A stretch of DNA of 64,000 nt from an uncultured Mollicutes bacterium. Its GTDB lineage: Bacteria; Bacillota_I; Bacilli_A; RFN20; CAG-826. This document shows, piece after piece, positions 39,139 through 58,662 of this stretch. Under the pieces are notes generated by a model. That model saw only the letters and a program-made list of their open reading frames with translations, had not been told where the DNA came from and did not search any database. The stretch is from positions 20,260-84,259 of the forward strand of contig UQXJ01000002.1 of the NCBI GenBank assembly GCA_900545015.1, written 5' to 3'. The position numbers and the translations under genes are program-made. The stretch's first letter is position 1, and each line of letters opens with the position of its first letter.

Positions 39139-39188
39139 AAATACAATTAGAAATACGTTTGGCAATAATATAAGAGAGGTTGATAACT

Positions 39189-41230: not shown

Positions 41231-41256
41231 ATTAAAGACTTATGTGAGGTGAGCTT

Positions 41257-42438
41257 ATGATTATTCGAGAAAAATATTTAAAAGAAATTAGACCTTTTTA
41301 TGATAGTGATTTAATTAAAATCATTACAGGAATAAGAAGATGTGGCAAATCAGTTATTCTTAAAACTATTTATGATGAAATAAATAAAAATTCTTCAAAT
41401 ACCATATATTTGGATTTTGAAGATGCAGGCGACTTAAAGAAGGCAGGAACTTTAGAATTATTGCTGAATTATATTGATAAAAATAGAAAAGATGGTAAGT
41501 GCTATATTTTTTTAGATGAGGTTCAGAATATAAAAGATTGGGCGATAGCAGTCAGAACATTAAGACTTCATAATAATTCAGTATTTATATCTGGTTCTAA
41601 TTCTAAATTATTATCAAAAGAATTTGCTACTGAATTATCTGGCAGATATGTATCTTTTAGAATTAGACCATTTGTTTATAAAGAAATAATTGAGTATTCA
41701 AAAGAAATTGGAAGAAAGTTTAACATAACAGATTATCTAATATGGGGCGGTTTTCCAAAAAGATTTGATATGGAAAATGAAGAATCAACTGTTAGATATT
41801 TAGAAGATTTAGAAGATACTATTGTTATAAAAGATTTAATTAAAAGATATAAAATCAAAAAACCTGAATTATTTAAAAAGTTTGTAAATTTTGTGCTGAG
41901 AAATAATTCAAGATTATTATCTGCAAGATCAATTCACAAGTATTTATTAGGTCAAGGTGTTGAATGCTCATCAAATACAATTTTAGGATATATGCATTAT
42001 TTAAAAGAAGCATATGTAATAGAAGAATTACCTCAATATTCAACAAAAGTAAAAAGAGAATTAAATTTCAATCCCAAATTATATAATTCTGATGTTTGTT
42101 TTAATTCACTAAAAGTTGATAACGGAAGATACGACTTAGATCATAATTTAGAAAACATTGTATATAATGAACTTTTATATATGGGATATGCTTTAAAAGT
42201 TTTTGATAACAAAGGGAAAGAAATAGATTTTTTAGCAACTAAGAGCGGAAAAACATTTTTAATTCAAGTTGCATATAGTGTAGTTGATGAAAAAGCATAT
42301 AATAGAGAATTTGATGCTTTTGCTGATTTAGATAACGCTAATCAAAAAATATTAATAACTAATGATGAGGTAGATTATTCATCATCAACAGTGAGACATA
42401 TTAAATTAGAAGATTTCTTAATGATGGAGGAATTATAG
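41257..42438 (+). CDS. AAA+ ATPase, DUF4143-type (second, divergent paralog)
   Basis: 393 aa with GAGGTGAG SD, Walker A GIRRCGKSV and Walker B YIFLDEVQN. Confidence 0.75.
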   Translation: MIIREKYLKEIRPFYDSDLIKIITGIRRCGKSVILKTIYDEINKNSSNTIYLDFEDAGDLKKAGTLELLLNYIDKNRKDGKCYIFLDEVQNIKDWAIAVRTLRLHNNSVFISGSNSKLLSKEFATELSGRYVSFRIRPFVYKEIIEYSKEIGRKFNITDYLIWGGFPKRFDMENEESTVRYLEDLEDTIVIKDLIKRYKIKKPELFKKFVNFVLRNNSRLLSARSIHKYLLGQGVECSSNTILGYMHYLKEAYVIEELPQYSTKVKRELNFNPKLYNSDVCFNSLKVDNGRYDLDHNLENIVYNELLYMGYALKVFDNKGKEIDFLATKSGKTFLIQVAYSVVDEKAYNREFDAFADLDNANQKILITNDEVDYSSSTVRHIKLEDFLMMEEL

Positions 42439-42715
42439 TATTGTATATGAAATAATTCCGATAAAATTATTTTTATCATCCAAAATCCTAATGTTTGTAA
42501 ACACTTAAAAGCAAAATGAACTATAAGCCAAATTGCTAAACGTTGTAACGTTAAATTGCCAATTTGAATATTTTAATGCTTGAGAACAGGCATTTAATGC
42601 AATCATAAGAAAATTAATTAGAATATTTATTGAACCAAAATCGAATTGAGCAAAGAAACTAGGACGGATATAAATGAAATTGAAATATGACTTTGTTTTA
42701 TTCGTCTAGAAAAAC

Positions 42716-42779
42716 AAATCATACGGAATAGAAATACAAAATCATACGGAATAGAAACTTTAAATCATACGGAATGACA
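42716..42779 (+). repeat. iteron-like triple direct repeat, 23-bp period
   Basis: AAATCATACGGAATAGAAA (42716-42734), AAATCATACGGAATAGAAA (42739-42757), AAATCATACGGAATGACA (42762-42779). Confidence 0.85.
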
Positions 42780-42818
42780 TAAAATATAGTTGTAGAAGAT
42801 AGCATAGAAAATAGAGAA

Positions 42819-43086
42819 TACTTTAGTTGAGGCTAAAGCTTAAAATGGTAATACCAAGTCTAGTAAAACGGTTATGAGTCATCCTGAACACTATGGTAAA
42901 ACTAAACTTATAAAAATTGGTGATTAAAATATTGGTGGTAATGATGATATGGTCACAAGACCACATTATCTCGTCTTTATATTAGGCAAACTTAAATATG
43001 ATTTTTAATATTATTCAACACCTAATAGATAAATCTCACTTATTTAGCAATAAATAAAATGCTGTTTATGAAAAAATAAGTTTAGC
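42819..43086 (+). pseudogene. 3'-terminal fragment of an ATPase-1-like gene (copy 2 of the 268-bp duplication) with in-frame stops
   Basis: It is collinear with 40355-40622. AAA to TAA (GCT TAA AAT) and TAC to TAA (GAT TAA AAT) interrupt the frame, and no 5' part is present. Confidence 0.8.
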
Positions 43087-43119
43087 TAAATGCAAGTCTA
43101 AATATTACTCGTGGATTGA

Positions 43120-43443
43120 AAAGAAGTATATCGTTTATGCAAAGAAGCTAAAGTAAACATTTCATACATTAATAATGAAAATGATTTTACAATCGAATTC
43201 TCTAGAATAGATAGAAATAAAATTGGCGAATTAAATGGCGAATTAAATGGCGAATTATCTAAAGAGGAATTCTCTGTTCTAACCGTTTTTAAAACTAATA
43301 AAAATGTGATAAAAGCTGAAGTTATTAAACAAGCTGAACTTTCAAGCCGAGCAATTGATAGAATCATAAAATCATTAAAAGAAAAAGAATTGCTAAGAAG
43401 AGTGGGCTCAAATAAAATTGGTTATTGGGAAGTTTTGAAATAG
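43120..43443 (+). pseudogene. C-terminal fragment (no start codon) of a wHTH-tailed ATP-binding/Schlafen-AlbA_2-type regulator
   Basis: The frame is open only from TGA 43117-43119 to TAG 43441-43443: KEVYRLCKEAKVNISYINNENDFTIEFSRIDRNKIGELNGELNGELSKEEFSVLTVFKTNKNVIKAEVIKQAELSSRAIDRIIKSLKEKELLRRVGSNKIGYWEVLK*. The ending ...GSxKxGYWEV is typical of that family's wHTH tail, judged from memory. Confidence 0.45.
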
Positions 43444-43931
43444 AATTTTTTCTTTTGAAGTTAATTTGTAAATTTACTTTTTATGCTGATATTAAAACTA
43501 TTGAAAATTATATTTGCAATATTTGTGAGCAAGCAATGCGAGATAGCGAGATTAGACTTATTTTGAAGTTGCAAAATGCGAGTATAAAATCAAACAGATC
43601 TAGAAAACTATAAATGCGAATTGCAGCAACGTCATTAGTTTCAAATATTTTTTTGGAAAACATAATATTAAAAGTATAGGAATATTAAAACTGCCATAAC
43701 TAATAAATTAGCAGTTGTCTTTATTTTGTGGACAACTGAATTATAGTAAGTTATTAGGAAAAATTTCTTCTTTTCCACAAGCGCAATTATAATATCACTA
43801 ATGAAAAGTTTTCAGCTTTTCATCCTTCATGTGCAAATAAGTATTTTTTTAAAATTCTTTTAATTGGCATTCATTTACTAGTAGAATAAACATAAAATAT
43901 AAGGCAAAAAACTTATATTAAGAATTGTTTT

Positions 43932-44195
43932 ATGAATAAAATTACTGTAAAAAATATTAAAATTGATGTAACTGGAATTGGGGATGATGATTTTATTAGT
44001 CTTACTGATATGGCGAAAATTAAGAATTCAGAATTTCCTGCTGATGTGATTAAAAACTGGATGAGACTTAGAGCAACAATTGAATTTCTTGGCATCTAGG
44101 AACAAATAAATAATGCAAATTTTAACATGGTCGAATTCGACCAGTTTAAAAATGAATCTGGTCATAATTTTTTTGTAATGACTCCAACTAAATAG
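43932..44195 (+). pseudogene. KilA-N domain gene remnant with TAG stops
   Basis: MNKITVKNIKIDVTGIGDDDFISLTDMAKIKNSEFPADVIKNWMRLRATIEFLGI*EQINNANFNMVEFDQFKNESGHNFFVMTPTK*. This matches the KilA-N N-terminal pattern (ISLTD...NW.R.R.TIEFLG.WE..NN..F). It has TAG at 44097-44099 and 44193-44195 and no C-terminal half. Confidence 0.6.
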
Positions 44196-44333
44196 ATAAA
44201 ATACTATAGTTTAATTCAATTATTTCAAGAATGCTTTCCTTTTAGAACAAATAACTTTGTTTTAGCTAGTATAACTTAAAGCAATTGCTTTAATACTATT
44301 TATAAAATAATAATCTATTTTAAATATAAATAA

Positions 44334-44367
44334 GGATGATGTAGCAAAGTAAAATGCTACATCATCC
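44334..44367. other. perfect 12-bp hairpin at the island / operon boundary
   Basis: GGATGATGTAGC-AAAGTAAAAT-GCTACATCATCC. There is no T-run on the plus strand. It lies upstream of the putative operon promoter (ATGACA, 16 nt, GATAAT around 44408-44436). Confidence 0.6.
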
Positions 44368-44498
44368 TATGCATTATTAAGAACATATTAAGATTTTGCT
44401 AATTTAAAATGACAATCTTTTTTGTAGTTTGATAATACTTTCATGCGATGTTCGTGACGAAATTGCAAAATAGTAACATCTTTTACGGAGGTAATTGC

Positions 44499-47400
44499 AT
44501 GAAAGGAAAATTTTTAATTTTTAGTATAACTGCTCTTTTGTCTTTAACAGGTTTAACAAATTGTTCTAGTACAACTGGCGGTGGTAATACAGATACTACG
44601 TGTCCTGAATGTCCACCTTGTGAAGACAAGGGTGATGGAAAAGACGATGGACAAGGTGGAGGAACAGAAAAACCTGACACTAAAGTTGATCCTTCCCAAG
44701 GACTTATTAGTCCAGAAAAGTCTGAATGGGGAGATAAAATTACTAATTTAATGGTTGAATATCTTGGAGGAGGAATTTTACCACTTATCGAACTTGGCGA
44801 TGGCGAATTTGATGCTGAGTTTGTTAAAAACGATGAGAAAGAAGATTATAAATCATATTTAAAAATCGTTGGTGGTAGTTTCTTATCTTCAAAACTTGAA
44901 TCAGCAGTAAAATTATATAAAGAACATTACTGGAATGCATTAATGATTGGTGAATCATTCTATGCTTCAAATGATTTAATAAAAGTTGAAGTAGAAGTTA
45001 GCAAAAACTACAATGGCTTATTTGAATTAAAAGCATTCTATCAAGAACCATTTAATCCAAAAGATGCAACTGCATGGAATGAACAAACTGAAGCATTAAT
45101 TAAAGAACGTTTTGGTAGATTTGTAGTTCCATTTACTTATCTTGGAACAGTCAATTATGATTCTTCAATTAATGAAGAAGGAGCATTAGTTGTAAGTGGT
45201 GGAACTTGGAGTGATTCTGCTATTAATCAATTTGAAACATCTTTTAAAGGCTGGGAAATAACAAAAGATGAAGAAGTCTTAACTACAAGATATGCAACAT
45301 TTAAAGATGGTGAAAATGAATTAAACGCTACTTTAACAAAAGCTCATAATAAAGCTGAACTTCAAGTATCAATCAAAGAAGCATTTGATTCATCTAATCA
45401 ATCAGCTTGGTCATCAGAAGTTCTTAAAGAAATGGATAAATCTTTAAATAAAACTGTCTTACCTTATGTTTATTTAGGAGCTATTTATCCAACAATTGAT
45501 AAAGCTACAACAAATGAAAGAAATCTTACTTTAGTTGGAAAGTTCTGGGATGATAAAATCTTAGAAAATGCTAAAGACGCATTTAAAATAGATTCATCCT
45601 GGAGTGAAAAAACTGTTGAAAGTGGAGTTGCTTTTACAAAATCTAATGAGTTTGATAGCTATGAAGTTGTTGTTGATAAAAATGAAAGTGGTCTTCCAAC
45701 TTTAAAAGCATCAAGAACAGAAGTTTATAACGAAACAACTTTAAAAGCTTATCCTGAAGATCTCAAAACAGCATTTAAAGATAAATATGCTGAAGAAATG
45801 GATACTATTCCATTCTTATATTTAGGTACAGCATATCCTACATTAAATACTGAAATCCCTGCAAAACACGAAGAAGATACAAGTAAACTTGTTATTACAG
45901 GTGGCGTATACAATTCAAAAATCTTAGATAATTTTAGAACTAAATTTACTAAAGAAGCAGGCTGGTATACAGCAATTGATAATACTCATGAAGATTCTGG
46001 AACTAAAAACGATGAACCAAGTGATATATTAGCAGTTGCAATTAAAAACACAGGAGAATTCACATATAAAGTTGGTTTAGTTACTTTAGAAAATGCTGGT
46101 GAAAAAACAGCTTATCTTGAAATCAATAGATCAAAAAATATAACTACAGCCGCTACAAAATGGAGCGATGAAACTTTAGCTAACATGTCTAAAGTTTTAG
46201 GAAGTGATGTTACATTGCCTTTCTTCGATGTAGGTAGAGATACACTTGAAATTGCCTTCGATGAATCTGGACATCTTGAAATTCAATTTGTTGCTGATCA
46301 CACTAATGTATCCTTTAGAGTATGGTCTGCAATTGATAGTTTAACAAAAGCAGATTGGGAATTAACTATTGCTCATAACGATACATATTACGATTCAGAA
46401 GCTTGGATTAATCAAGTTTCTGCAACAAAAGACTTTAATGGTAAAAAAGTTCAAGTTCAAATTAACATTAACGCAAGTGCTTATTATAGATTTGTATTGA
46501 AAGGCGGAGTTAGTCCAGTTGAAACTTATGATGCTAGTAAAGTAAACGGAAGTTGGAGCGAAGATATAAGTTCAGTAATTAAAGATAAATATAAAATTGA
46601 TTTCCCTTACATCTATTTAGGTACTGATAATCCTTATATATTCGAGGATACCGAAGAAGGTACTACAAAAATTATTGGTAATGCTTTAACTAATGAATTA
46701 TTTGTAAATGCAAAAGATGTATTAACAAAGAATGGTTTCTTAATTGATACAAGTGCATCTTGGGATATGCTTGTTAAAGCAACAAAAGAAAATAGCGATG
46801 GTAATATTGTAAATGTTGAAGTTAGTTATCATGATAACAAACCTTATATTAGCTTCTCATTAACTGAAGTATTTAAACCAGGCACTCAAACAGCATGGGA
46901 TTCAAAAACTCAAGAATCTTTAAATAAAGAACTTCCTAGTGGTGTTACACTTCCTTATTTATATTTAGGAACAGCAGAACCAACATCAACTTTTGATACA
47001 AAAAATAATGTCAAAAAGATCTCTATAGTTGGTGGAAAATGGGATGATGCAGTTATTAATTTATCTAAATCATCACTTGAAACTAATTCATTTAGTGTTT
47101 CAATCGACTCTTCCTCATATTATACAGGTCCATCACTTCTTGCACATAAATTATTAGAAAGCTCTAGTGCAAAAGCTATAAGACTTAAATTAAGTGAAAA
47201 TCGTGATGATAAAATTGAACTTGATGTATATATTGACTTGGTACCAGACGCTCCAAGTGATAAAATAGCAACTTGGGACGAATTCCCTAAGTATTATGGA
47301 ACTTCTGTTACAGATGCTATGCAAACATATTTAGGAACTAAATTACCTGAATTCATTCCTAGTGCACTTGTACCATCTGCAGATGATAGCATTAGTATCA

Positions 47401-48065
47401 GCTCACCATATTCTCAACTTAGAAATAAGTATTTCAGTATGTATTCATACTATTGTGCTTATGACACATATTACTTATATGTAGCAATGGACAAACTTAA
47501 AGCTGAAGGATTTACAGTTAAATATAACCCATTCTCAAAAGATGAATTAGCTGGTTTCTCTGCTAGTAAAAAGGATGCAAATGGAACTTTATATATCTCA
47601 TTTGCTCCATCAAGTGGTAATTATAGCGATTCTAATAACGGAATGAGTTTATCGGCACTTTATCTCCCTGATGCATCTTTATACGATAGTACAACTGCAT
47701 TCTCAGAATCTGAAAAGAATACAATCTCTTCAAGTTTAGATGGGTTAGAACTTCCATATGCGAATCTTGGATCTGATAAATTAAAGATTACTGAAAGAAC
47801 TAATGAAGTAAGTTTAATTGGTTACAATTATTCCGAAAAAATTATCGAAAATATTAAAAAGTCATATGGTGATGCTGGCTGGACAGTAAATGATACATAT
47901 TCAATCAGTAATGGAGTCGCTTATAAAACTGTAAATGGCTTCTTAATTAAAAATGGTCATACTTACGTATTAACAGTTGTTCCAACTGTTTCAAAAGCAG
48001 TTAATGGAGGAGGAGCATTCTCTTCAAGCTCAGTTACAACTGAAGTTAAAGTAACAATGGCTTAA
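44499..48065 (+). CDS. 1188-aa surface lipoprotein built from about nine tandem ~110-135-aa modules
   Basis: GGAGG plus the ATG at 44499 gives MKGKFLIFSITALLSLTGLTNC (signal peptide plus lipobox-like LTNC), followed by a Gly/Asp/Cys-rich linker. The recurring module signature is xW(S/N/D)xE...LP(Y/F)xYLG(T), e.g. SAWSSEVLKEMDKSLNKTVLPYVYLGA and TAWDSKTQESLNKELPSGVTLPYLYLGT. Confidence 0.8.
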   Translation: MKGKFLIFSITALLSLTGLTNCSSTTGGGNTDTTCPECPPCEDKGDGKDDGQGGGTEKPDTKVDPSQGLISPEKSEWGDKITNLMVEYLGGGILPLIELGDGEFDAEFVKNDEKEDYKSYLKIVGGSFLSSKLESAVKLYKEHYWNALMIGESFYASNDLIKVEVEVSKNYNGLFELKAFYQEPFNPKDATAWNEQTEALIKERFGRFVVPFTYLGTVNYDSSINEEGALVVSGGTWSDSAINQFETSFKGWEITKDEEVLTTRYATFKDGENELNATLTKAHNKAELQVSIKEAFDSSNQSAWSSEVLKEMDKSLNKTVLPYVYLGAIYPTIDKATTNERNLTLVGKFWDDKILENAKDAFKIDSSWSEKTVESGVAFTKSNEFDSYEVVVDKNESGLPTLKASRTEVYNETTLKAYPEDLKTAFKDKYAEEMDTIPFLYLGTAYPTLNTEIPAKHEEDTSKLVITGGVYNSKILDNFRTKFTKEAGWYTAIDNTHEDSGTKNDEPSDILAVAIKNTGEFTYKVGLVTLENAGEKTAYLEINRSKNITTAATKWSDETLANMSKVLGSDVTLPFFDVGRDTLEIAFDESGHLEIQFVADHTNVSFRVWSAIDSLTKADWELTIAHNDTYYDSEAWINQVSATKDFNGKKVQVQININASAYYRFVLKGGVSPVETYDASKVNGSWSEDISSVIKDKYKIDFPYIYLGTDNPYIFEDTEEGTTKIIGNALTNELFVNAKDVLTKNGFLIDTSASWDMLVKATKENSDGNIVNVEVSYHDNKPYISFSLTEVFKPGTQTAWDSKTQESLNKELPSGVTLPYLYLGTAEPTSTFDTKNNVKKISIVGGKWDDAVINLSKSSLETNSFSVSIDSSSYYTGPSLLAHKLLESSSAKAIRLKLSENRDDKIELDVYIDLVPDAPSDKIATWDEFPKYYGTSVTDAMQTYLGTKLPEFIPSALVPSADDSISISSPYSQLRNKYFSMYSYYCAYDTYYLYVAMDKLKAEGFTVKYNPFSKDELAGFSASKKDANGTLYISFAPSSGNYSDSNNGMSLSALYLPDASLYDSTTAFSESEKNTISSSLDGLELPYANLGSDKLKITERTNEVSLIGYNYSEKIIENIKKSYGDAGWTVNDTYSISNGVAYKTVNGFLIKNGHTYVLTVVPTVSKAVNGGGAFSSSSVTTEVKVTMA

Positions 48066-48096
48066 TTAAAACATTTTATTAAAGGATGGTTAAATT

Positions 48097-49707
48097 ATGT
48101 TAAAAAGTTTTATCAAAAGATTAAAATTAGAAAAAATATTACAAGGATCAATCTATGCTTTAGGTGGTTTATTATTAACATCTAGCTTATTGATTGCTAT
48201 CTTTCAAATTTTAAAATTGACAGCTTGGTATTTTTATTTAATTGCTGTCGGTGGAGGTTTATTAACTTTTGTCATCATCCTTCTTGCTTATTATTTTGCT
48301 AAAAAAATAAAAGAAAAAGATGCTGCTAAAAGAGTTGATAGTAACTTTGATCTTCACGAAAAAGCATCAACCATGGTTGAATTTGAAGGAAAAAGTGGCT
48401 TTTTAATCGAAAAGCAAAGAGAAGATGCTAAAAAATGTATTAAGCATACTAATCCTAAAAAACTTGCCATTAAATTAACAATGGCAAGTTTAGTTTTCCC
48501 TTTAATTGGAGGTGGCGCATTTGCGACATCTTTCTTTACAAATAACATTGTTAATGCTTTTACTTTTGAAAATGATGATAATTTTGATAATGACACAGAT
48601 AAAATTATCGATAATATCAAAGAATATATTGGAAAGAGTCAAGCTTCAGCTGCATTTAAAGAAAAATTATATAAGATCTTAGAAGATCTTCGTGAAGACC
48701 TAAAAGGTGATGTTTCAATTCCTTCTAGAAGAGAAAAAGTAAATAAAGCAAAAGAAGAAGTTGATGTTGCTTTAGATGAAGTTAATACAAAAGAAGAAAT
48801 CGGAGAAGCATTACTTAAAGAAGATAATGATTTTACAGAAGTTGGTGCAGTAGTTTCTAGTGCTGAAGTTGAAAAACTTGAAGCAGTATTTAAAAATTTC
48901 GCTGATCAATTAAATATAGTTGTTTCAACAACTGGTTTATTAGCACTTCTTGGAGAATGGATTAATAATCTTAAAGATTTCTTTAAAGGAGTAGATATTC
49001 CTAAAACTGATGCAAACTATAATACATTCAAAAATTTATTAACAAAGTTTCAAGCAGTTCATGATAATGTCGAACAAAAACTTGCTGCAAGTTCGAATGC
49101 ATCAGGTAAAGTAATCAATCAATTAATTACAAGTTCACAAGAACAAGTTAAAAAAGCAATTGAAGAAGTTATTAAAGAACTTAAAACAAATTTAACTTTA
49201 GAAAAAGGAAATGATGAACTTGCTAAAAAAGTTAAAGATTTAATGGACCAATTAATTGATCCTAATAGTGAGAAAAAAGATAATACCGGAGCTGAAGAAG
49301 GTGGAAATGGAAAACCTGATGGCGAAGAAGGTGACATTGGCGATAAAGGCGACGAAGAAATCGATACCGATAAAGGCGATAGCGGAAATGCTGAAGGTGG
49401 TAAAGGTGACAGTGATGGCGAAAATGGCGATGGAAGCGGATCTGGCGATGGCGGAAAAGATGGCGAAGGCGATGGCCAAGGAAAAGGTGATGGCGCTTCT
49501 GGAGGCGGTGGTTCAACAAAGTACGGAAGTAACGACAAAGTCTACACTGGTGAAAATGGACAAACTGCTTATGGTGATGTAATTGGCGATTACCAAAATG
49601 GTGCAAGTGATGATGCTAAGGGCACTGGGGATGATGATTTAGAAGGCGCTATTGGAGATTATTTTGATGAACTCTATGGCGATGCAGATAGAAAATCTAA
49701 CCCTTAA
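48097..49707 (+). CDS. membrane protein: N-terminal TM hairpin plus third TM, helical/coiled-coil middle, Gly/Asp/Glu/Lys-rich low-complexity tail
   Basis: 536 aa with TM spans around aa 20-70 and 125-150. The tail is GAEEGGNGKPDGEEGDIGDKGDEEIDTDKGDSGNAEGGKGDSDGENGDGSGSGDGGKDGEGDGQGKGDGASGGGGS. Confidence 0.75.
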   Translation: MLKSFIKRLKLEKILQGSIYALGGLLLTSSLLIAIFQILKLTAWYFYLIAVGGGLLTFVIILLAYYFAKKIKEKDAAKRVDSNFDLHEKASTMVEFEGKSGFLIEKQREDAKKCIKHTNPKKLAIKLTMASLVFPLIGGGAFATSFFTNNIVNAFTFENDDNFDNDTDKIIDNIKEYIGKSQASAAFKEKLYKILEDLREDLKGDVSIPSRREKVNKAKEEVDVALDEVNTKEEIGEALLKEDNDFTEVGAVVSSAEVEKLEAVFKNFADQLNIVVSTTGLLALLGEWINNLKDFFKGVDIPKTDANYNTFKNLLTKFQAVHDNVEQKLAASSNASGKVINQLITSSQEQVKKAIEEVIKELKTNLTLEKGNDELAKKVKDLMDQLIDPNSEKKDNTGAEEGGNGKPDGEEGDIGDKGDEEIDTDKGDSGNAEGGKGDSDGENGDGSGSGDGGKDGEGDGQGKGDGASGGGGSTKYGSNDKVYTGENGQTAYGDVIGDYQNGASDDAKGTGDDDLEGAIGDYFDELYGDADRKSNP

Positions 49708-49742
49708 TTTATAGAAAAACATTGTAGAAAGAAGGTATTTAT

Positions 49743-50729
49743 ATGGAAAACGAAGAATTATTACAAGAATTTAGCTCTGCTACAGCTAAGATAAAAGAAC
49801 AAATTCATAGAGATATTATTGGTCAAGATGAAGTTGTCGACACAGTTGTTACTGCAATTATTGCAGGAGGAAACGTCTTACTTGAAGGTGTTCCTGGAAC
49901 TGGTAAAACTCGTCTTGTACGTTCAATGGGGCAAACATTATCTTTGTCCTTTTCTAGAATTCAATTCACTCCAGATTTAATGCCAAACGATGTTACTGGA
50001 ACTAATATTATTCGTAAAGATAGTGATGGAAATCTTGTTTCATCATTTAGAAAAGGACCTATCTTCTCTCAAATCGTTTTAGCAGATGAAATTAACAGAG
50101 CTACACCTAAAACTCAAGCCGCTATGCTTGAAGTTATGCAAGAACATAAAGTTACTGTAAGTGGTGTTTCTTATCCAATGGATGAACCTTTCTTTGTTTT
50201 AGCTACTCAAAACCCTATTGAACAAGATGGTACTTATCCACTTCCTGAAGCTCAAATGGATAGATTTATGTTTAAAGTCAACATGGCTTATCCAACAGAA
50301 AAAGAACTTGCTGATATTGTCAATTTAACTCAAGAAACTCAAAAAGAAAGAGCAGAAAAAGTTGTTGATGGTGAAACAATCTTACATATGCGTAAACTTG
50401 CAACTCAAGTACCAGTTATCGAAGATGTTTTAAATTATGCAATGAAACTTATTCATAAAACTCATCCTGAAGTTGATAAAACATCAGAAGTTGCTAAAAA
50501 ATATATTAAATTTGGTGCATCACCACGTGCTTGCCAAGCTTTAATTACTGGAGCAAAAATTAGAGCATTGATGAAAGGCAATTTCAATGTATCTTATGAA
50601 GATATTGATACTTTAGCTCTTCCAGTTTTAAGACATAGAATTAAACTTACATATAGTGCAATTAATGATAATTTAACAGTTGATGATGTTATTAATAAAT
50701 TAATCGAAGAAACTCATAAAGGAAAATAA
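49743..50729 (+). CDS. MoxR-family AAA+ ATPase
   Basis: 328 aa with Walker A GVPGTGKT and Walker B IVLADEINRATPKTQAAMLEVMQE, which is diagnostic of the MoxR/AAA_3 type. Confidence 0.92.
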   Translation: MENEELLQEFSSATAKIKEQIHRDIIGQDEVVDTVVTAIIAGGNVLLEGVPGTGKTRLVRSMGQTLSLSFSRIQFTPDLMPNDVTGTNIIRKDSDGNLVSSFRKGPIFSQIVLADEINRATPKTQAAMLEVMQEHKVTVSGVSYPMDEPFFVLATQNPIEQDGTYPLPEAQMDRFMFKVNMAYPTEKELADIVNLTQETQKERAEKVVDGETILHMRKLATQVPVIEDVLNYAMKLIHKTHPEVDKTSEVAKKYIKFGASPRACQALITGAKIRALMKGNFNVSYEDIDTLALPVLRHRIKLTYSAINDNLTVDDVINKLIEETHKGK

Positions 50730-50732
50730 TTT

Positions 50733-51608
50733 ATGAGACAAATCATTGATGAACGTTTTTTAAGCCAACTTGAGTTATTTTCTTTAGCAATAAAAGACAA
50801 TGTTGCTGGATTATTTGGTGGCTCTCATCAATCGAAAAAATATGGAACCTCATGTGAATTTGCTGATTATAGAGAATATGTTGAAGGGGACGATATATCA
50901 AAAATTGATTGGAACATATATGGTCGTTTTGAACAATTATATTTAAAACTTTATCTCGATGAGAAGCAGATGTATACAAAGATTTATATAGATGCTTCAA
51001 GATCAATGTCATTTTTTAATAAAGATGAATATGCTTTAAGACTTGCTGCTTCACTTGCTTATTTATCAGTATCTGAAATGGATAGGGTTTCTGTTTATTT
51101 AGTTAAAGGAAAAAGTGTTGTACCATTATTTGAAAAAATAATAGGTAGAGAAAAATTCTTTGAAAATGTTTCTAAACTAAATAGCGTTACTTTCGATGGT
51201 GAAACATTTATGTCTGAAGCTATTTTAAGAAGTGATGTCGGCTATGGAAATGGTAAAAGTATTATCATTTCTGATTTTTTAACTGATAATGATTATTTAT
51301 CAGCAATTGATTTTTTAAGAGATAAACATCGTGATGTTTTATGTATTCAACTTCTTGCTCCTGAAGAATTAAATCCTACAGCAAGAGGCAAAAACATTCT
51401 TTATGATTCTGAAGATTCAAACAAATATTTTAAAGGAAATATAAGTAGAGATGTTTTACTTGCTTATCATAAAGCTTTAGATTTTCTTGAAGAAAATTTA
51501 ACAAATTATTGTGCTTCTAGAGAAGCAGACTATGCGCTTTATGATACATCAATTTCTTTAAGAGAATTGTTTATGAATCGATTATTTAATAAGGGGGTGA
51601 TTAGATGA
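50733..51608 (+). CDS. DUF58-family protein (MoxR partner)
   Basis: 291 aa with the hallmark FADYREYVEGDDISKIDWN. It sits 3 nt after moxR. Confidence 0.88.
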   Translation: MRQIIDERFLSQLELFSLAIKDNVAGLFGGSHQSKKYGTSCEFADYREYVEGDDISKIDWNIYGRFEQLYLKLYLDEKQMYTKIYIDASRSMSFFNKDEYALRLAASLAYLSVSEMDRVSVYLVKGKSVVPLFEKIIGREKFFENVSKLNSVTFDGETFMSEAILRSDVGYGNGKSIIISDFLTDNDYLSAIDFLRDKHRDVLCIQLLAPEELNPTARGKNILYDSEDSNKYFKGNISRDVLLAYHKALDFLEENLTNYCASREADYALYDTSISLRELFMNRLFNKGVIR

Positions 51609-53494
51609 GTTTTAATTTTCCATTAGGTCTTCTTCTTTTACTTGGAATACCTGCCCTTATTATTATTTATATCATTAAAAATAGGTATAAAGAAAAAGTA
51701 GTTTCATCAGATTATGTCTGGGAATTAAGTAAAAAATTTTTAAAGAAGAGGAATCCTTTAAATTCAATATCAAACTTATTAAACCTTATTATTCAATGTC
51801 TTTGCATTTGCTTTTTAAGCTTTTCTTTAGCAGATCCTGTATTTACTTTTAGAAATGGAGCTGAAAATGAAGTCTATATTTTAGATGCTTCAGCTAGTAT
51901 GGAAACTAAAAATGAAGATGGTTTGACTCGTTTTGAAAAAGCTAAAAATGAAATTAAATCACTTGTTAATGACTCAAAAAATGGTTCAACATACACTCTC
52001 ATCGTAGGTGATTCAAATACAAGAACAATTTGTAAAAACATTAAAGAAAAAGATATTTTTAATTCTTTACTTGATAGAGTTAACATTGATTATGCTGAAA
52101 GCGGACTTGAAAATGCAATTAGTTTAGCTCAATCATTATCTTCTGAAGAAGTAGGAAGTCATTTTACTTTATTTACTGATAAAGAAGTTAAAGCTAATGA
52201 AAATTTAGCTTGTGTAAATGTTAGTGATACTAATAAAAATTATTCAATCATTAACTTAAGAGCTAACGAAATTAAAGAAGAAAAAGACAAATATTTAGTT
52301 TTAGAAGCTGACCTAATGTCATACAGCGAAGACACAACTTTAAATGTCGAATTTTTCCTTGATGATGCTTCTTTAGGAAAAGTTGAAAAAGAAGTAAAAA
52401 CTAATGAAAAAGCTGTTGCACAACTTAAATTACTAAATGTAGAAAACAAATTTTCTAAATATAGCTCAATTAAAGCAGCAATTTTAAATGAAGATTATTT
52501 AAAAGAAGATAGCGAATTTATTGTCTATAATTCTTCTGATTTTGATACAACAAAAATTATGATTGTTAGTTATTCTCCTTTTTATTTTCAATCTGTTTTT
52601 AATGCACTTAATAGGAATGGTTTAAAAATTGCTTATACAGTTGTTTCTCCAGCTCTTTATATGTTTAGCACTGGAGCAGTAGGATATGATGTTGTAATTT
52701 TTGATGGCTATGCTCCTGATACATTACCTGTTGATAGTGCTGTATGGCTATTTAACTGTGGAGAAACAATTGATAAGTCTGGTTTTAAATTCCAAAAAGA
52801 GTTAACAAAAGAAGATCCAGGAATTAAAGCAAGTTATGCAAATAATAGTGATGATGTTTTATACCAAGCATTAACGAAAGATTTAGTCAAAAGAGATGTT
52901 ACAATTAAAACTTATCTTCGTTACACATTAGATTCTAAATTTACAACAATTCTTTCTTACGATAACCTTCCATTTATTTTTGCAGGAAGAAATGAATATA
53001 ATCAAAAAGAAATTGTCTTTAATTTTGATTTACATAATTCAAATTTCCCATTACTTGCAGATTTCATAATTCTTATGAGAAATTGTGTAAGTTATTCAAA
53101 TCCATCAATTCTTAATGATTTTAATTATAGTGTAAGTGAAAAAGTAGTATTTTCTTTCCCTGACACTGCATTAAGTTGCGAAATTAAAACTCCATCTAAT
53201 AAAAAAGAATATTTAAGTTCAAATGATATTCAAACTTATAAATTAAAAGAAGTTGGAACTTATTCAATAAGTGTAAAAGTTGCTACTGGAGAAACTAAAA
53301 AGCTTAATCTTTTTAGTGCTTTCCCTGAAAAAGAAAGAGTGCCACTAGTTAAAGATGAAAAAGTTTATAGCATTTCTATTAAAGATAACGTTAAAAAAGC
53401 AGATGGAATTTTTGAAGCTTTACTTGTTGTTGTAATTATTGGGCTAGTTTTCCTTCTAGCAGACTGGATGATATATAGTTATGAGCAATTTTAA
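51605..53494 (+). CDS. BatA_N-type double-TM N-terminus plus VWA domain protein with C-terminal TM
   Basis: 629 aa. The N-terminus MSFNFPLGLLLLLGIPALIIIYIIK...LADPVF is aerotolerance-regulator-like. The MIDAS-like motif is VYILDASASM. The C-terminal TM is ALLVVVIIGLVFLLADWMIY. Confidence 0.8.
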   Translation: MSFNFPLGLLLLLGIPALIIIYIIKNRYKEKVVSSDYVWELSKKFLKKRNPLNSISNLLNLIIQCLCICFLSFSLADPVFTFRNGAENEVYILDASASMETKNEDGLTRFEKAKNEIKSLVNDSKNGSTYTLIVGDSNTRTICKNIKEKDIFNSLLDRVNIDYAESGLENAISLAQSLSSEEVGSHFTLFTDKEVKANENLACVNVSDTNKNYSIINLRANEIKEEKDKYLVLEADLMSYSEDTTLNVEFFLDDASLGKVEKEVKTNEKAVAQLKLLNVENKFSKYSSIKAAILNEDYLKEDSEFIVYNSSDFDTTKIMIVSYSPFYFQSVFNALNRNGLKIAYTVVSPALYMFSTGAVGYDVVIFDGYAPDTLPVDSAVWLFNCGETIDKSGFKFQKELTKEDPGIKASYANNSDDVLYQALTKDLVKRDVTIKTYLRYTLDSKFTTILSYDNLPFIFAGRNEYNQKEIVFNFDLHNSNFPLLADFIILMRNCVSYSNPSILNDFNYSVSEKVVFSFPDTALSCEIKTPSNKKEYLSSNDIQTYKLKEVGTYSISVKVATGETKKLNLFSAFPEKERVPLVKDEKVYSISIKDNVKKADGIFEALLVVVIIGLVFLLADWMIYSYEQF

Positions 53495-56177
53495 ATTTAA
53501 TAATCCTTGGTTACTTTTTTTAATTATTCCGCTTGTTGCACTCATTGTAATAGGCTTCTTTATAATGAAAAAAGAAAAGCGTTATTCAAAAAAGAATATT
53601 ATTTCACTTGCTTTACATCTTGTAATTGCAGTTTTAGTTTCTATATCATTTGCTGATCCTAGATACCTTTCAATTGATAAAGAAACTGAAGTATATCTTT
53701 TAGTTGATGCTTCTGCTAGTGAAAAACCATCAACTGATAAAATCGATGAAACAATTAAAAAAGTTAGCAATGAAGTTTTAAAAACACCTAATACAAAAGT
53801 TGGTGTTATTCCTTTTGCTAAAAAAGCAATTACATTAGTTGAACTTGGTGGTAAATTCGATTCAATTAATGATGTTTATGAGGACAAAAATTTTGATTAT
53901 ACTGCTACAAATCTTGAAGAAGCTTTACTTTATACAAGTGAAAAATTTAAAGAAGATTCATACAAAAGAATTGTTCTTATATCAGACGGAAATGAAACAG
54001 ATGGAGAAGCAATCAATACAATTGAAACTTTAATGCAAGAAGGCATTACAGTTGATGTTATTAATATGAATGCTGAATTTACATCAGAAATTTCTATCAC
54101 TGGAATTAAATATACAGATAACACATATTTAAATAGAGAAGAGGAAGTCGAAGTATTAATTAATGCTTCATCAACTTGCAGCGTTACTGTTAATTTATAT
54201 AAAGAAGACGAACTTGATAGTACAAAAAATTCATATTTAAATAACGGATTAAACGTTATTACTTTTCCTCTTGATACTAGTGCTCCTGGTGAATTTAAAT
54301 ATAAAGTTGTTGTAACAGGCGAAGAAGGAACAGAATTTAAAGATACTTTTATCGAAAACAATTCTCGTTCTTTTATTCAAAATGTTTCTTCTGATTTTAA
54401 ATATTTATTTTTAGGAAGTAGCGAAGCTGAATTAAATAAATTTAAAAGCTTAGCAAATTTATCAGCTGAAACAAATATTGATACATTTATTAATAAGAAA
54501 AATGTTCCTTATTCTTTAGAAGATCTAATTAAATATGATGAAATTATTTTATCTGATTTAGATTTCACTACATTAAATAACTATAATGAGTTAATTGATA
54601 ATTTATCTAAAGCAGTTTCAATTTATGGAAAATCTGTATTTACATTTGGATCAACAAATGTTGGAAATACAAATGATCCAGCACTTGTTTCTTATAACGA
54701 TTTATTACCTGTTCAATATCAACCTGATGATTCTAGAGCATTAGTTCTCGTCCTTGATTCATCTGGCTCAATGGGAGGTAATAACATTAATATGGTTATT
54801 GCTGGAGCAAAAGAAGTTGTTAAAAAATTAAATGTCAATGATTCAATTGCTGTTGTTACTTTTGAAACTAATACAGTCGTTCCAGTTACAATGACAACTA
54901 TTAGAAACGAGAAAAATAGACAAGAAATTTTAAATAAGATTGATAGAATTAAAGTTGGTGGTGGAACTAACATGATGAATGCTTTAGATGAAGCATATAA
55001 ACAAATTCAAGGTGTCACTGCTGAATATAAAAACATCATCTCTTTAACTGATGGATTAGCTGGCGACAATGTAGAAGATTTAAAAAAATATGTTACATCT
55101 ATGAGCTTTTCAAACATTTCTTCATCATTTATTAATGTAGGTGATGAAGATGGAAAAGGCGAAGAACTTTTAAAAACACTTGCTAAACTTGGCAATGGAC
55201 AATATAAATATTGTGCAGATTCATCGAACTTAAAAGACATCATGGTTGACACAATTAACCAAGAAATCCTTGATAAAGTGATTGAAAAAGATTCACCAAT
55301 CATTTATCAAAAAGAAAATGATGCTTCTATGAAAAACGGCGTCTTAAATAAACTTGAAAACGTTCAAGGATATAATTATTGCCGTATGAAAAGTGGAGCA
55401 AGTACTGTTCTTTCAGTTCAATATATTCACACAAATTCTAAAAATGAATTAAGCGTAATTGCTGTTCCTTTATATGCTTATTGGAATTTTGGTTCAGGAA
55501 AAGTAACATCATTTACATCTTCATTAAGCACAAGCTGGACAACAAAATTCTGGAATGCAGCTTCAGGAAAAACATTCTTTAGCAATATTCTTAGTGAAAG
55601 TTTACCTGATAGATTTAATAAATCTATTTTGAATATTAATTTTAAAGCAAATGGATCAACATCTAAAGTTATAGTATCTCCAAACGTTGATACGAAAGAT
55701 ACAAAAGTAAGTGTTGAATTTTCTTCTTTAGATAAAAAAGATGAAAAAATATCATATGATTTAATTTTTGATGGTGATAGTTTTAGTTATAATCTTCCTA
55801 CTCCAAAAGTTGGTTTTTATAAAGCAACGATTAGCTTCTCTAAATTAAATACTGTAACTAACGCTTATGAATTATCTGAAAAAGTAGAAATGACATATAG
55901 CTTTGATTATTCATCTGAATTTAATTTCTTTGATGATAATAGAAACACTTTATTAAATGAAATATCTTCTCAATGTGGAGGTTCAATCCTTGCTGAAAAT
56001 AATATTCATTTTAATATAGCAGACAATCAACTTACTGAAGCAAGTTATGTGTCGCTAATGGTTTGGATTCTTCTTGCTGCGGTTATCTTATATCTTGCTG
56101 ATATCGTTATTAGAAAATCTTTATTTAAGAAAAAAGTTAAAAAAGAAAAAGAAGAAATTAAAGACAATTATTTCTAA
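53481..56177 (+). CDS. BatA/BatB-like membrane protein with two VWA domains and C-terminal TM
   Basis: 898 aa. The N-terminus is FNNPWLLFLIIPLVALIVIGFFI...FADPRY. The MIDAS motifs are YLLVDASAS and LVLVLDSSGSMGG. The C-terminal TM is VSLMVWILLAAVILYLADIVI. Confidence 0.85.
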   Translation: MSNFKFNNPWLLFLIIPLVALIVIGFFIMKKEKRYSKKNIISLALHLVIAVLVSISFADPRYLSIDKETEVYLLVDASASEKPSTDKIDETIKKVSNEVLKTPNTKVGVIPFAKKAITLVELGGKFDSINDVYEDKNFDYTATNLEEALLYTSEKFKEDSYKRIVLISDGNETDGEAINTIETLMQEGITVDVINMNAEFTSEISITGIKYTDNTYLNREEEVEVLINASSTCSVTVNLYKEDELDSTKNSYLNNGLNVITFPLDTSAPGEFKYKVVVTGEEGTEFKDTFIENNSRSFIQNVSSDFKYLFLGSSEAELNKFKSLANLSAETNIDTFINKKNVPYSLEDLIKYDEIILSDLDFTTLNNYNELIDNLSKAVSIYGKSVFTFGSTNVGNTNDPALVSYNDLLPVQYQPDDSRALVLVLDSSGSMGGNNINMVIAGAKEVVKKLNVNDSIAVVTFETNTVVPVTMTTIRNEKNRQEILNKIDRIKVGGGTNMMNALDEAYKQIQGVTAEYKNIISLTDGLAGDNVEDLKKYVTSMSFSNISSSFINVGDEDGKGEELLKTLAKLGNGQYKYCADSSNLKDIMVDTINQEILDKVIEKDSPIIYQKENDASMKNGVLNKLENVQGYNYCRMKSGASTVLSVQYIHTNSKNELSVIAVPLYAYWNFGSGKVTSFTSSLSTSWTTKFWNAASGKTFFSNILSESLPDRFNKSILNINFKANGSTSKVIVSPNVDTKDTKVSVEFSSLDKKDEKISYDLIFDGDSFSYNLPTPKVGFYKATISFSKLNTVTNAYELSEKVEMTYSFDYSSEFNFFDDNRNTLLNEISSQCGGSILAENNIHFNIADNQLTEASYVSLMVWILLAAVILYLADIVIRKSLFKKKVKKEKEEIKDNYF

Positions 56178-56184
56178 ACAAAAG

Positions 56185-56233
56185 TCACTAGTAATATGTA
56201 TTTAAAAAAAGTATATATTCTAGTGATTTTTTT
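56185..56233 (+). terminator. strong rho-independent terminator ending the six-gene operon
   Basis: A ~15-bp interrupted stem, TCACTAG(T)AATATGTA ... TATATATT CTAGTGA, followed by TTTTTTT (56227-56233). Confidence 0.7.
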
Positions 56234-56377
56234 AATTAAAAAAAGTTGCATAGTCTCAAAAAGCATAAGTTTAATTTTAATTATAAATAAATGGGAAAAC
56301 CAAAATGCCATTATTTCTTAATTTTAACCTCAAAATATGATATTGTTTAAGGGAAAGTAATAGTGTGAGGTGAAAAT

Positions 56378-57509: not shown

Positions 57510-57700
57510 GTTTGACGGGCATGCCGTATATCTAATGGGTGAAAGTCCTTAGTAGGAAAGTCGTTATAACAACATAGTGAAACTCAAGTCTGGTATCGTG
57601 AGGTATGGGATGAAAGAAGAACGTAGCAAATAGACTGGGTAACGAATAGAAACTTGATATAAGGCGATTAATTGGTGATAAAATAGCATTGCATATTAAA
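57510..57700 (+). ncRNA. candidate truncated 5' segment (domain I part) of a group II intron-like RNA
   Basis: It is an intergenic patch, GC-richer than its surroundings: GTTTGACGGGCATGCCGTATATCTAATGGGTGAAAGTCCTTAGTAGGAAAGTCG...GGGATGAAAGAAGAACGTAGCAAATAGACTGGGTAACG. It has a GUGYG-like 5' end after a T-run and a GGGUGA(R)AGUCC hairpin with a GAAA-type loop, as in bacterial group II intron 5' ends (from memory). No domain V and no RT ORF lie downstream. Confidence 0.4.
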
Positions 57701-57927
57701 ATCACAAACGCCCAGTTTTCTTAAATTAGAAAAATATAACTTTAATAGAAAAAATGCTCTGATAATAATACGTAAATAATTTATTTTCTCATTATCAATT
57801 ATGACAATATCAAATTAAAAGAGTGTGTATTTTAGTCATTTAAATTTGAATTTTTTAAATATTCGATTAGTTGAAAAAAATGGCGAGAGGCTTTATTATA
57901 CTTTGCGTAAGGTTTAATAAAATCACT

Positions 57928-58662
57928 ATGGTTATTTATAAAGTTGCAATTGTTGAAGATGATGAAAAACAATATGAAGTTGTATATTCTCTTTTAAAAG
58001 AATACGAAACTTTGAATGACGTAAGTTTTTCAGTTTCCTATTTTCATAATGGATTAGAATTTTTAAAAAAGTGTAAAGAATCATCTTTCGATTTAATATT
58101 TATGGACATCGAAATGCCTGAACTTGATGGCTTAAGTGTATCTAAAGAACTGCGATCATTTGATAAAGAAGTCCCTATAATAATTATTTCTTATTCAGCA
58201 AAATATGCTGTCAAAGGATATTACATAAATGCTTTTGGTTATTTAGTTAAACCAATATTAAAGACTGATTTTAATTTTCTTTTAAAGAAAGTGATTACTG
58301 AAATTAATCGAAAGAAAAATTCATATATTCTTTTAGAAAAGAAATCAAGTATTCAAAAAGTTTTCACAAAAGATATTTTATATATTGAAGTTGAAAACCA
58401 TTATTTACATTTTTATTTAACAAGTGGAAACGATATAGTCATAAGAGGAAAAATGGGTGATTATGTAAAGCTATTAAATAATGAAGGCTTTACAAGATGC
58501 AATGAGTGCTATCTTGTAAACCTTGCTTATGTTACAAAAATAGATAGCTCAAGTAATAGTGTTATTTTAGGAAATATCTCTCTTGCTTTGTCTAAGCAAA
58601 AGAAGAAGAGCTTCATTGAAGTTTTAACAAATTATTTAGGCGAGAACGCACAAAATGTATGA
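57928..58662 (+). CDS. LytTR-family response regulator
   Basis: The receiver is KVAIVEDDE...DLIFMDIEMPELDG. The LytTR domain is ILYIEVENHYLHFYLTSGNDIVIRGKMGDY. The track start at 57871 (TTG) adds an implausible 19-aa N-extension. Confidence 0.85.
   Translation: MVIYKVAIVEDDEKQYEVVYSLLKEYETLNDVSFSVSYFHNGLEFLKKCKESSFDLIFMDIEMPELDGLSVSKELRSFDKEVPIIIISYSAKYAVKGYYINAFGYLVKPILKTDFNFLLKKVITEINRKKNSYILLEKKSSIQKVFTKDILYIEVENHYLHFYLTSGNDIVIRGKMGDYVKLLNNEGFTRCNECYLVNLAYVTKIDSSSNSVILGNISLALSKQKKKSFIEVLTNYLGENAQNV

Follow-up and report, generated by a model that had tools for sequence, protein, structure and literature searches.

A block of six genes, here called g1 to g6, was analysed at positions 44499-56177 of a 64,000-nucleotide stretch of DNA from an uncultured Mollicutes bacterium (contig UQXJ01000002.1); this whole stretch is referred to below as the window. 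Five of the genes, g2 to g6, are a conserved unit that is widespread in Firmicutes, in which g2 is the integral first gene and is followed by genes for a MoxR-type ATPase, a DUF58 protein and two VWA proteins. The sixth gene, g1, belongs to a multi-copy, lineage-specific family of giant lipoproteins that is kept beside each cassette of its lineage, a pattern that is hard to explain by chance. There is about an even chance that g2-g6 form a Bat-like transmembrane MoxR/DUF58/VWA machine whose outward-facing MIDAS (metal ion-dependent adhesion site) domains act on the neighbouring g1 lipoproteins. Few bacterial gene clusters that lack an assigned substrate are as widespread as MoxR-DUF58-VWA cassettes. 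The genes of the block are as follows:

44499-48065, + strand: g1, 1188-amino-acid lipoprotein with nine homologous modules
48097-49707, + strand: g2, 536-amino-acid membrane protein with an acidic Gly/Asp tail
49743-50729, + strand: g3, MoxR-type AAA+ ATPase
50733-51608, + strand: g4, DUF58 protein
51605-53494, + strand: g5, BatA_N and VWA membrane protein
53481-56177, + strand: g6, membrane protein with two VWA domains

From g1 to g6 the genes are separated by gaps of 31, 35 and 3 nt and then overlap by 4 and 14 nt. The positions, gaps and overlaps of these six same-strand open reading frames (ORFs) agree exactly with those given in a preliminary description of the DNA.

The five-gene cassette and its proteins

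Roughly 30 related loci were compared, drawn from a low-GC lineage and from other Firmicutes. The low-GC loci come from uncultured gut bacteria recorded as 'Bacilli', 'Mollicutes' (UMGS238), 'Bacillales UBA6879' and 'Clostridium sp. CAG:568', and a few of the bins are implausibly named. The lineage may correspond to order RF39, although a literature search gave no paper that places these genomes there. The order g2-g3-g4-g5-g6 is found in all but one of the loci with enough visible sequence: g2 is followed by MoxR, DUF58, a BatA/VWA protein of 620-660 amino acids and a two-VWA protein of 810-940 amino acids. This order holds in near relatives of the window (including L011-L020), in members at 30-40% identity and in three contigs of 45-55% GC. 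The higher-GC contigs were obtained from a metagenome scan with a tighter alignment of a g2 subset (A6), which gave four loci. A spore-former whose cassette has SpoIVA in its vicinity shows the same order as far as its contig reaches, which is short of the fifth gene. The preliminary description had presented g2 as an unusual extra gene at the head of a known cassette; this was not borne out, as g2 is the normal first gene of this cassette type. Its further suggestion that g1 and g2 are together the client or scaffold of the machinery fared differently for the two genes: for g2 a role as transmembrane component is likelier than one as client, while g1 remains a candidate partner through its conserved adjacency.

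Two loci possess a cassette without MoxR (L028, 10058-17110; L029, 5765-12870), in which the gene next after g2, at a distance of about 66 nt, is DUF58. The metagenome-assembled genomes that contain L028 and L029 also hold complete cassettes (L034 and L025), and separate divergent g1-like genes accompany each of the two MoxR-less cassettes. These duplicates suggest that a single ATPase is able to serve two DUF58/VWA/g2 sets. Ranked by identity to the window, the genes run g3 > g4 > g5/g6 > g2 > g1, as would be expected if exposure increases outward.

Proteins were assigned to families by Pfam gathering scores, and the conservation of motifs was counted over orthologues from these loci. The MoxR identity of g3 and the DUF58 identity of g4, both proposed from motifs in the preliminary description, were confirmed by Pfam. 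In g3 the AAA_3 domain (E 3e-60, 202 bits, cut-off 27) is accompanied by AAA_lid_2 (57.8 bits), and the closest solved relative is a MoxR-like protein from Cytophaga (PDB 2R44, E 3e-69). Walker A reads GVPGTGKT and Walker B reads VLADEI. The latter motif (LADEI) is identical in 27 of 27 orthologues, while Walker A appears as TGKTR in 23 and as VGKTR in 4. By its domains, its intact Walker motifs and its DUF58 and VWA neighbours g3 falls within MoxR proper (MRP). The presence of DUF58 and VWA gene neighbours is the criterion of Snider & Houry (2006), as cited in PMC12067865. The DUF58 domain of g4 (PF01882) was recognised with E 4e-23 and 82.4 bits (cut-off 23.4). This protein has no transmembrane (TM) helix and carries a MIDAS-type DxSxS motif at residue 87 that is kept in 29 of 29 orthologues; a second DxSxS at residue 271 is not conserved and was dismissed as a chance occurrence. 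A search of PDB sequences with g4 gave no match.

The two VWA proteins share a layout in which two N-terminal helices are joined by a Lys/Arg-rich loop. In g5, BatA_N (E 8e-9, 36.2 bits, cut-off 25.9) and VWA_2 were both called, and the N-terminal double TM is followed by the VWA domain, an uncharacterised ectodomain of about 400 amino acids and a C-terminal TM helix at residues 601-619. Its MIDAS motif, DASAS at residue 94, is kept in 29 of 30 orthologues. The larger g6 possesses two VWA domains (E 1e-26) and a weak GATase1_like region at residues 617-705. Its MIDAS motifs are DASAS at residue 76 in the first VWA domain and DSSGS at residue 426 in the second, each present in 23 of 23 orthologues. 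A C-terminal TM helix at residues 859-877 is followed by a strongly basic, Lys-rich tail that is predicted to be cytoplasmic. BatA_N-type N-termini had been proposed for both proteins; Pfam supports this for g5, while in g6 the N-terminus shares the double-TM layout and can be aligned weakly with g5 but receives no BatA_N call. The three MIDAS-type VWA motifs noted earlier are present and conserved save in one g5 sequence, and hydropathy supports the C-terminal TM helix seen in both proteins. In the locus L023 (15653-18411) of Clostridium sp. CAG:568 the g6 orthologue is split into ORFs of 402 and 512 amino acids, either through a frameshift or sequencing error or because the gene is a pseudogene.

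The g2 protein itself has no match in Pfam or NCBIfam. A word-indexed search returned 115 relatives and an exhaustive profile search 1,944 clusters at E<=1e-3. The family has 261 clusters at E<=1e-30, its members are mostly 470-510 amino acids long, and the only names found among the relatives are of the 'hypothetical protein' kind, for example from a Clostridia genome bin. The protein starts with a basic N-terminus and two TM helices, after which comes a predicted cytoplasmic loop at residues ~65-120, in which R79xD81...KQREDA (106-111) is invariant. Across the family this loop of about 55 residues takes the form A.R.D..(G)L.E[RK]..TM......QR[ED]DA, and among close members KQREDA is invariant. 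Residues 123-141 probably form a third TM helix, which is moderately hydrophobic (H = 1.59). It is followed by a long helical region with VNTKEEIG, predicted to be an extracellular coiled coil, and by an acidic Gly-rich spacer at residues ~396-472; residues 391-536 have a net charge of -27. At the C-terminus the motif YT..G...YG.VI.DY...DYF..LYG is conserved, in the family as Y..V...Y....L......I..YF..L. Close and distant members have this layout in common, and the distant ones keep both the loop and the C-terminal motif. In a broad alignment of 27 sequences, the loop that is predicted to be cytoplasmic accounts for 8 of the 13 most conserved positions. A search of PDB sequences with g2 found only generic coiled-coil chains.

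A likeness of g2 to DUF4175, raised as a guess in the preliminary description, is weakly supported for the family and not for the window protein. DUF4175 (PF13779, cut-off 27.3 bits) matches 8 of 18 family members. The N-termini of six of them (residues ~6-96) are colinear with DUF4175 positions 10-98 at a sub-threshold 12-20 bits; P0162 reaches 28.0 bits, above the cut-off, in its central region, and P0198 reaches 24.2 bits. The g2 of the window gives no match to DUF4175 at E<=1. DUF4175/TIGR02302 proteins resemble g2 in their N-terminal TM pair, long helical region and low-complexity acidic/Gly region. They differ in size, as g2 has about 540 amino acids and the DUF4175 profile 825 positions, and the KQREDA loop and the C-terminal YG.V..DY...YF..LYG motif set the g2 family apart. 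Sequence comparison gives weak but consistent support to the view that g2 is related, distantly and in a shorter form, to DUF4175-type proteins and that it founds a family without annotation. In proteobacteria, MoxR cassettes may likewise have DUF4175 genes beside them. One relative, P0187 (672 amino acids), combines g2-like N-terminal TM helices, loop motif and coiled coil with a C-terminal transglutaminase-like core (PF01841, E 5e-19). This fusion links the g2 family to the transglutaminase partner of other MoxR-DUF58 clusters.

On hydropathy and charge bias, the only basis for the topology, g3 and g4 are predicted to be cytoplasmic, whereas the VWA domains of g5 and g6 and the tail of g2 are predicted to lie outside the cell. 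The outward prediction for g5 and g6 agrees with the experimentally determined periplasmic location of the VWA domain of Borrelia BB0173 (PMC5700661).

The g1 lipoprotein, its adjacency to the cassette and a possible machine

The product of g1 begins with a signal peptide that leads to Cys22, continues with a disordered acidic, Pro- and Gly-containing stalk to about residue 62 and is then made up of nine alpha/beta modules. The modules are ~110-135 amino acids long (~115 typically), carry the motif W..(20)..LP[YF]xYLG and have boundaries near residues 74, 190, 300, 416, 552, 684, 797, 936 and 1065. Profile hidden Markov models (HMMs) of the module identify eight of them with iE 1e-5 to 1e-19 and a degenerate one with iE 0.012. 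An AlphaFold2 model of the whole protein (mean pLDDT 86, residues 1-62 disordered) agrees with nine modules, and the nine-module architecture of 1188 amino acids read earlier from the sequence is confirmed by the HMMs and the model together. A single module modelled with eight paralogues (pLDDT 90.6, pTM 0.82) is predicted to contain, in order, a helix, two strands, a helix and four strands.

No Pfam or NCBIfam family matches g1. The best match of the module in the PDB has E 0.028 with a TM-score of at most 0.49, and the best in BFVD, an uncharacterised phage protein, has E 0.006 with a TM-score of 0.54. Fold matches of the whole protein in the PDB (KICSTOR, fatty acid synthase, hot-dog thioesterases, TbpB and the phage P68 fibre) were rejected as spurious multi-domain matches with TM-scores of 0.16 or less. 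Those of the single module (KA1/CIPK domains, DcrB, Flpp3, Mog1 and a Campylobacter phage protein) were rejected as too weak, with TM-scores of 0.42-0.54 and E >= 0.006. A word-indexed search with a 50-sequence module alignment gave no match and also missed the g1 family itself, so its silence is an effect of the word index and does not indicate absence. The g1 module is a new repeat of ~115 amino acids that has no described family and no convincing solved relative. The module HMMs found nothing significant in g2-g6, and the uncharacterised parts of the g5 and g6 ectodomains are therefore not g1-type modules.

At least 90% of g1-family members keep Cys22. The signal peptide (h-region H = 2.13) and lipobox (pattern [LVI][ASTVI][GAS]C) mark g1 as a lipoprotein with predicted lipidation. 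Most members have L-x-G-C or L-[VI]-G-C, and the L-T-N-C of the window protein is atypical. A gene for Lgt was found in a related contig. The net charge of g1 is -58, and its stalk is acidic and Pro-rich in the clade of the window and Ser/Thr-rich in distant members. Within the disordered stalk, a short way behind the cysteine of the lipid anchor, CPECPPC occurs at window positions 44598-44618 (residues 34-40). It follows a consensus CPxCPxCEE that is limited to the clade of the window, and from its sequence it could be a metal-binding or redox site.

Adjacency of g1 was surveyed with the cassette as the centre, among low-GC loci with at least ~3.4 kb of visible flank. Every one of them has one to three g1-family genes at 26-600 nt from the cassette, in four arrangements, and the neighbours were verified as members of the family. 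Tight co-directional g1 genes, with gaps of 26-38 nt, are found in the window, in L004 and in L011-L020 except L019. Loose co-directional genes with gaps of 202-474 nt, single or as tandem triplets, are found in L008, L019 and L023. Divergent g1 genes with gaps of 237-600 nt are present in L002, L009, L021, L022, L024, L026, L028, L029 and L032-L034, and L010 has a convergent downstream g1 with a gap of 426 nt. The other parts of the ~10-kb flanks and of the 64-kb window contained no further g1-family genes. When distant g1 homologues were instead taken as the starting point, two lay beside a cassette and five elsewhere, alone or in tandem arrays. The preliminary description had seen a cassette unusually headed by g1 and had named the synteny of g1 and g2 homologues with MoxR cassettes as the check. 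The outcome that would have refuted it did not occur for either gene, since g2 heads a MoxR cassette in all but one locus and g1 flanks every low-GC cassette with a visible flank. The adjacency of g1 stands within the lineage, although it is not always operonic and g1 paralogues also occur far from cassettes. The g1 link is lineage-specific, and the tight operon is found only in the clade of the window.

The likeliest scheme for the joint action of these proteins starts from their domain identities, motifs, gene order and neighbourhood, all of which are observed; the topology, each physical contact and the direction of action in it are inferred. The MoxR hexamer (g3) would perform ATP-driven remodelling on the cytoplasmic side, and the DUF58 protein (g4) would serve as its VWA-like cytoplasmic adaptor through its own DxSxS site. 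The RxD...KQREDA loop of g2 may dock the ATPase or the adaptor on the inside, with the coiled coil, acidic spacer and C-terminal motif placed outside. Among the membrane proteins g2 would be the best candidate for coupling, because it has the only strongly conserved cytoplasmic segment, which includes the acidic QREDA. The three MIDAS VWA domains of g5 and g6 would be displayed on ectodomains pinned to the membrane at both ends and could bind acidic ligands on g1, on the g2 tail, or on both. A complex of g2, g5 and g6 might then assemble, hold or remodel g1 at the surface under the control of MoxR and DUF58. CbbQ-CbbO, NorQ-NorD, RavA-ViaA and BchI-BchD (Mg-chelatase) offer a precedent: the VWA/MIDAS adaptor holds on to an acidic residue of the client, which the AAA+ ring remodels. 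In the low-GC gut Bacilli lineage the machine may have acquired a fixed genomic partner in the giant g1 lipoprotein genes.

Several observations weigh against a coupling of this kind. At L027 (266-1906) an orphan g2 is followed by no MoxR, DUF58 or VWA gene in the 9.5 kb downstream. Long ORFs are scarce in that DNA and its GC content is higher (36-43%), which may reflect a chimeric contig or decay of the locus. The g1 genes of L001, L006, L007 and L041 have no cassette in their visible flanks, and that of L040 has none downstream, its upstream side not being visible. Outside the low-GC lineage the module HMMs detected no g1 beside the cassettes, whose neighbours are housekeeping or two-component genes; because the cassette occurs there without it, g1 cannot be the general substrate of the cassette. 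The loci are also related by descent, and the 24 occurrences of g1 at 24 loci amount to a handful of independent events (about four arrangements and the duplication). Divergent and convergent g1 genes must have promoters of their own. The topology is soft, being based on hydropathy, and the third TM helix of g2 is marginal at the H value given above. The genetics of related Bat systems has also defined no role.

Several of these points agree with an inherited adjacency without coupling, in which g1 proteins are independent, fast-evolving surface lipoproteins (adhesins, nutrient binders or variable antigens) encoded by the side of an envelope-maintenance cassette that has other substrates. The g1 paralogues that stand alone or in tandem arrays away from cassettes, the complete and conserved cassette without g1 in other Firmicutes, the separate g1 promoter needed in many arrangements and the position of g1 as the fastest-diverging gene of the block are all in its favour. 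Such an explanation has difficulty, however, with a closeness of less than 600 nt that survives at least three kinds of rearrangement while g1 identities are only 21-28%, with the paralogous MoxR-less cassettes that carry g1 genes of their own, and with the lack of g1 elsewhere in the surveyed flanks and window. It is a tentative possibility, held well short of an even chance.

A role for MoxR and DUF58 as a cytoplasmic export chaperone acting on the unfolded g1 precursor, with the external VWA proteins taking no direct part, is improbable. In the clade of the window g1 lies directly upstream of the ATPase genes, a precursor of 1188 amino acids with many modules is a plausible client, and a precedent is reported for MoxR1 and RipA of M. 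tuberculosis (Bhuwan et al. 2016, cited in PMC12067865). The signal peptide of g1, however, is of the ordinary lipoprotein type and has no twin-arginine motif. The MoxR-less duplicates, moreover, keep DUF58, both VWA proteins and g2 beside their own g1; because of this, the conserved partners of g1 are the membrane proteins and not the ATPase.

MoxR-VWA systems of biological conflict were reportedly described by Kaur and colleagues in 2020, and an anti-phage or counter-invader system of this type would make g1 a variable surface sensor or decoy. The secondary match of g3 to bpMoxR (PF20030, E 2e-15), the fast evolution of g1 and the mobile-element debris upstream of the block would fit such a system, but it is very improbable, since AAA_3 outscores bpMoxR by far in g3, Pfam finds no beta-propeller or effector domain in the six proteins, PADLOC returned nothing credible (short P-loop matches of g3 and a marginal ZorA match of g2 at E ~1e-3 and 16 bits), and the cassette lies in a housekeeping context with a fixed order in many species.

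The Bat-like transmembrane machine with g1 as its neighbouring target can also be put in a stronger form: g1 would be the physiological partner or client, and the AAA+ ring, through DUF58 and the g2 loop, would control the grip of the MIDAS domains on the lipoprotein coat of a reduced-genome gut bacterium. This form is possible but doubtful. If true, it would make this the first Bat-type cassette to name its own substrate in cis, and the MoxR-less duplicates would show one ATPase serving several adaptor-plus-client sets. A physical link would open a tractable route to the coupling of an AAA+ ATPase with MIDAS domains across a membrane; if the link is not physical, the locus is an ordinary Bat-like cassette beside a variable lipoprotein gene. 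The retention of g1 by the cassette through rearrangements and duplication is a natural experiment that provides a specific, testable candidate partner. The host is uncultured, so direct testing is limited, and the predicted interactions can be tested with recombinant ectodomains and complex prediction.

Boundaries of the block and its surroundings

From its layout the six-gene block resembles one operon, or single transcription unit. The following elements were recognised at its ends:

44333-44368, no strand: upstream boundary hairpin, 14 perfect pairs and an 8-nt loop, dG -23 kcal/mol
44409-44436, + strand: candidate sigma-70-like promoter, ATGACA-16-GATAAT, 63 nt before the g1 start
44489-44494, + strand: Shine-Dalgarno sequence GGAGGT, read in the sequence, 4 nt before the g1 ATG
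56180-56238, + strand: intrinsic-terminator-like element, hairpin 56180-56231 followed by TTTTTTT

The upstream hairpin (z -7.3; none of 200 shuffles equally stable) is terminator-like, with a T-rich tail on the side of the - strand. It had been described as a perfect 12-bp hairpin; the hairpin is there, and its length is the 14 pairs listed. The strong terminator reported downstream is also present, with dG -21.4 kcal/mol, z -7.4 and seven T; its AT-rich stem had caused it to be overlooked by a simple hairpin scan. The promoter candidate has 10 of 12 consensus matches and is a consensus match only, and the count of promoter-like sites in the block region is not above the shuffled expectation. 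No significant structure was detected in the g1/g2 and g2/g3 spacers (z -0.75 and -0.41), and a scan of 42-58 kb with Rfam found no riboswitch or leader upstream of the block. An alternative g1 start at the upstream ATG at 44448 is possible; the start at 44499 is preferred because GGAGGT precedes it and full-length homologues (1178-1211 amino acids, beginning with MK(G/K)KF) start at the equivalent Met.

The rest of the window is ordinary chromosome, with genes for ArgRS, purB, purA, ABC transporters, CorA, an SNF2 helicase, YebC, a Fic protein, a LytTR two-component system and a GH3 enzyme. Long ORFs read through under table 11, which means that TGA serves as a stop codon.

The 'decayed mobile island' that the preliminary description had placed next to the block was checked in part on the upstream side, and two AAA_14/DUF4143 genes, a duplicated gene end and a satellite-phage-like patch were found. 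The duplicated end is a direct repeat of 274 nt, 92% identical between 40355-40628 and 42819-43092. It comprises the 3' end of the first AAA_14/DUF4143 gene with downstream sequence and is repeated after the second such gene. The ~2 kb at 42439-44330 are free of long ORFs, in keeping with a decay of genes on the upstream side of the cassette. Within them a patch of ~170-215 nt at ~43984-44202 is 76% identical to genes of Streptococcus satellite phages (Javan279/559/581, 'hypothetical protein') and 67% identical to a transcriptional-regulator gene of Staphylococcus phage EW; these matches suggest that a remnant of a mobile element directly precedes the boundary hairpin. Right before the first AAA_14/DUF4143 gene, at 39053-39160, there are three copies with a spacing of 32 nt of a unit that starts AAAACTCC(C/A)TT(G/T)(A/T)AT(A)TTTCTTA, and this array may be iteron- or operator-like.

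Downstream of the block, between the Fic and LytTR response-regulator genes, a full-length match to group-II-D1D4-3 (RF02001) lies at 57592-57759 on the + strand (50.5 bits, gathering score 32). There is no adjoining reverse-transcriptase ORF, and the match may represent an ORF-less or truncated group II intron. AAA_14/DUF4143 genes and a histidine-kinase/response-regulator pair recur near g1 or the cassette both in a distant relative (L009, 1-2535) and in the window (39180-42438 and 57871-59968), which could be a coincidence or a conserved wider neighbourhood.

Comparison with known systems

The cassette is most readily compared with the Bat operon, including Borrelia BB0170-BB0176 and the Leptospira batABD genes with moxR. 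A MoxR-proper ATPase, a DUF58 protein and a BatA double-TM protein with a MIDAS VWA domain that faces outward (here by prediction) are common to both, and g5 itself is a BatA-type protein. Unlike the Bat operon, the six proteins contain no TPR (BatB/C/E) or BatD family at E<=0.1. The cassette here belongs to a monoderm, its first gene encodes a coiled-coil protein with three TM helices and an acidic tail, the two-VWA protein has a GATase1-like region and a giant lipoprotein gene adjoins. The function of such systems has not been settled by genetics in Bacteroides, Leptospira, Francisella and Borrelia; for Bat systems, Leptospira included, genetic work has given no defined role, and a phenotype in aerotolerance or oxidative stress was not found in Leptospira.

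In the mycobacterial locus ripA-ripB/moxR1-Rv1480(DUF58)-Rv1481(VWA), genes for exported envelope proteins also lie directly upstream of MoxR-DUF58-VWA. RipA and RipB, however, are Tat-exported NlpC/P60 peptidoglycan hydrolases, while g1 is a lipoprotein with a new module; furthermore, no g2-like gene has been described there and only one VWA protein is present. The Bifidobacterium PFNA cluster (pkb2-fn3-aaa_atp-duf58-tgm) likewise has the gene of a large, fast-evolving, multi-domain surface protein upstream of MoxR/DUF58 in a gut commensal, and its transglutaminase-like core is of the kind also fused to the g2-like N-terminus of P0187. It differs in that a Ser/Thr kinase and a transglutaminase replace BatA/VWA and the surface protein is built of FN3 domains. 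With CbbQ-CbbO, NorQ-NorD, RavA-ViaA and BchI-BchD the cassette shares the combination of an AAA+ ring and a VWA/MIDAS adaptor, which here would be the DxSxS of the cytoplasmic DUF58 protein. The solved MoxR/VWA pairs share a compartment with their client, whereas three of the four MIDAS sites here are predicted to lie across the membrane from the ATPase.

The principle of a surface or exported protein gene upstream of MoxR-DUF58 is not new, as ripAB and the fn3 gene of PFNA demonstrate. What is new is that g2 is a fifth conserved component and represents a large family without annotation, that g1 stands for a family of nine-module lipoproteins whose fold is undescribed, that the two remain persistently paired, g1 with the cassette, in one gut lineage, and that the cassette has MoxR-less duplicates.

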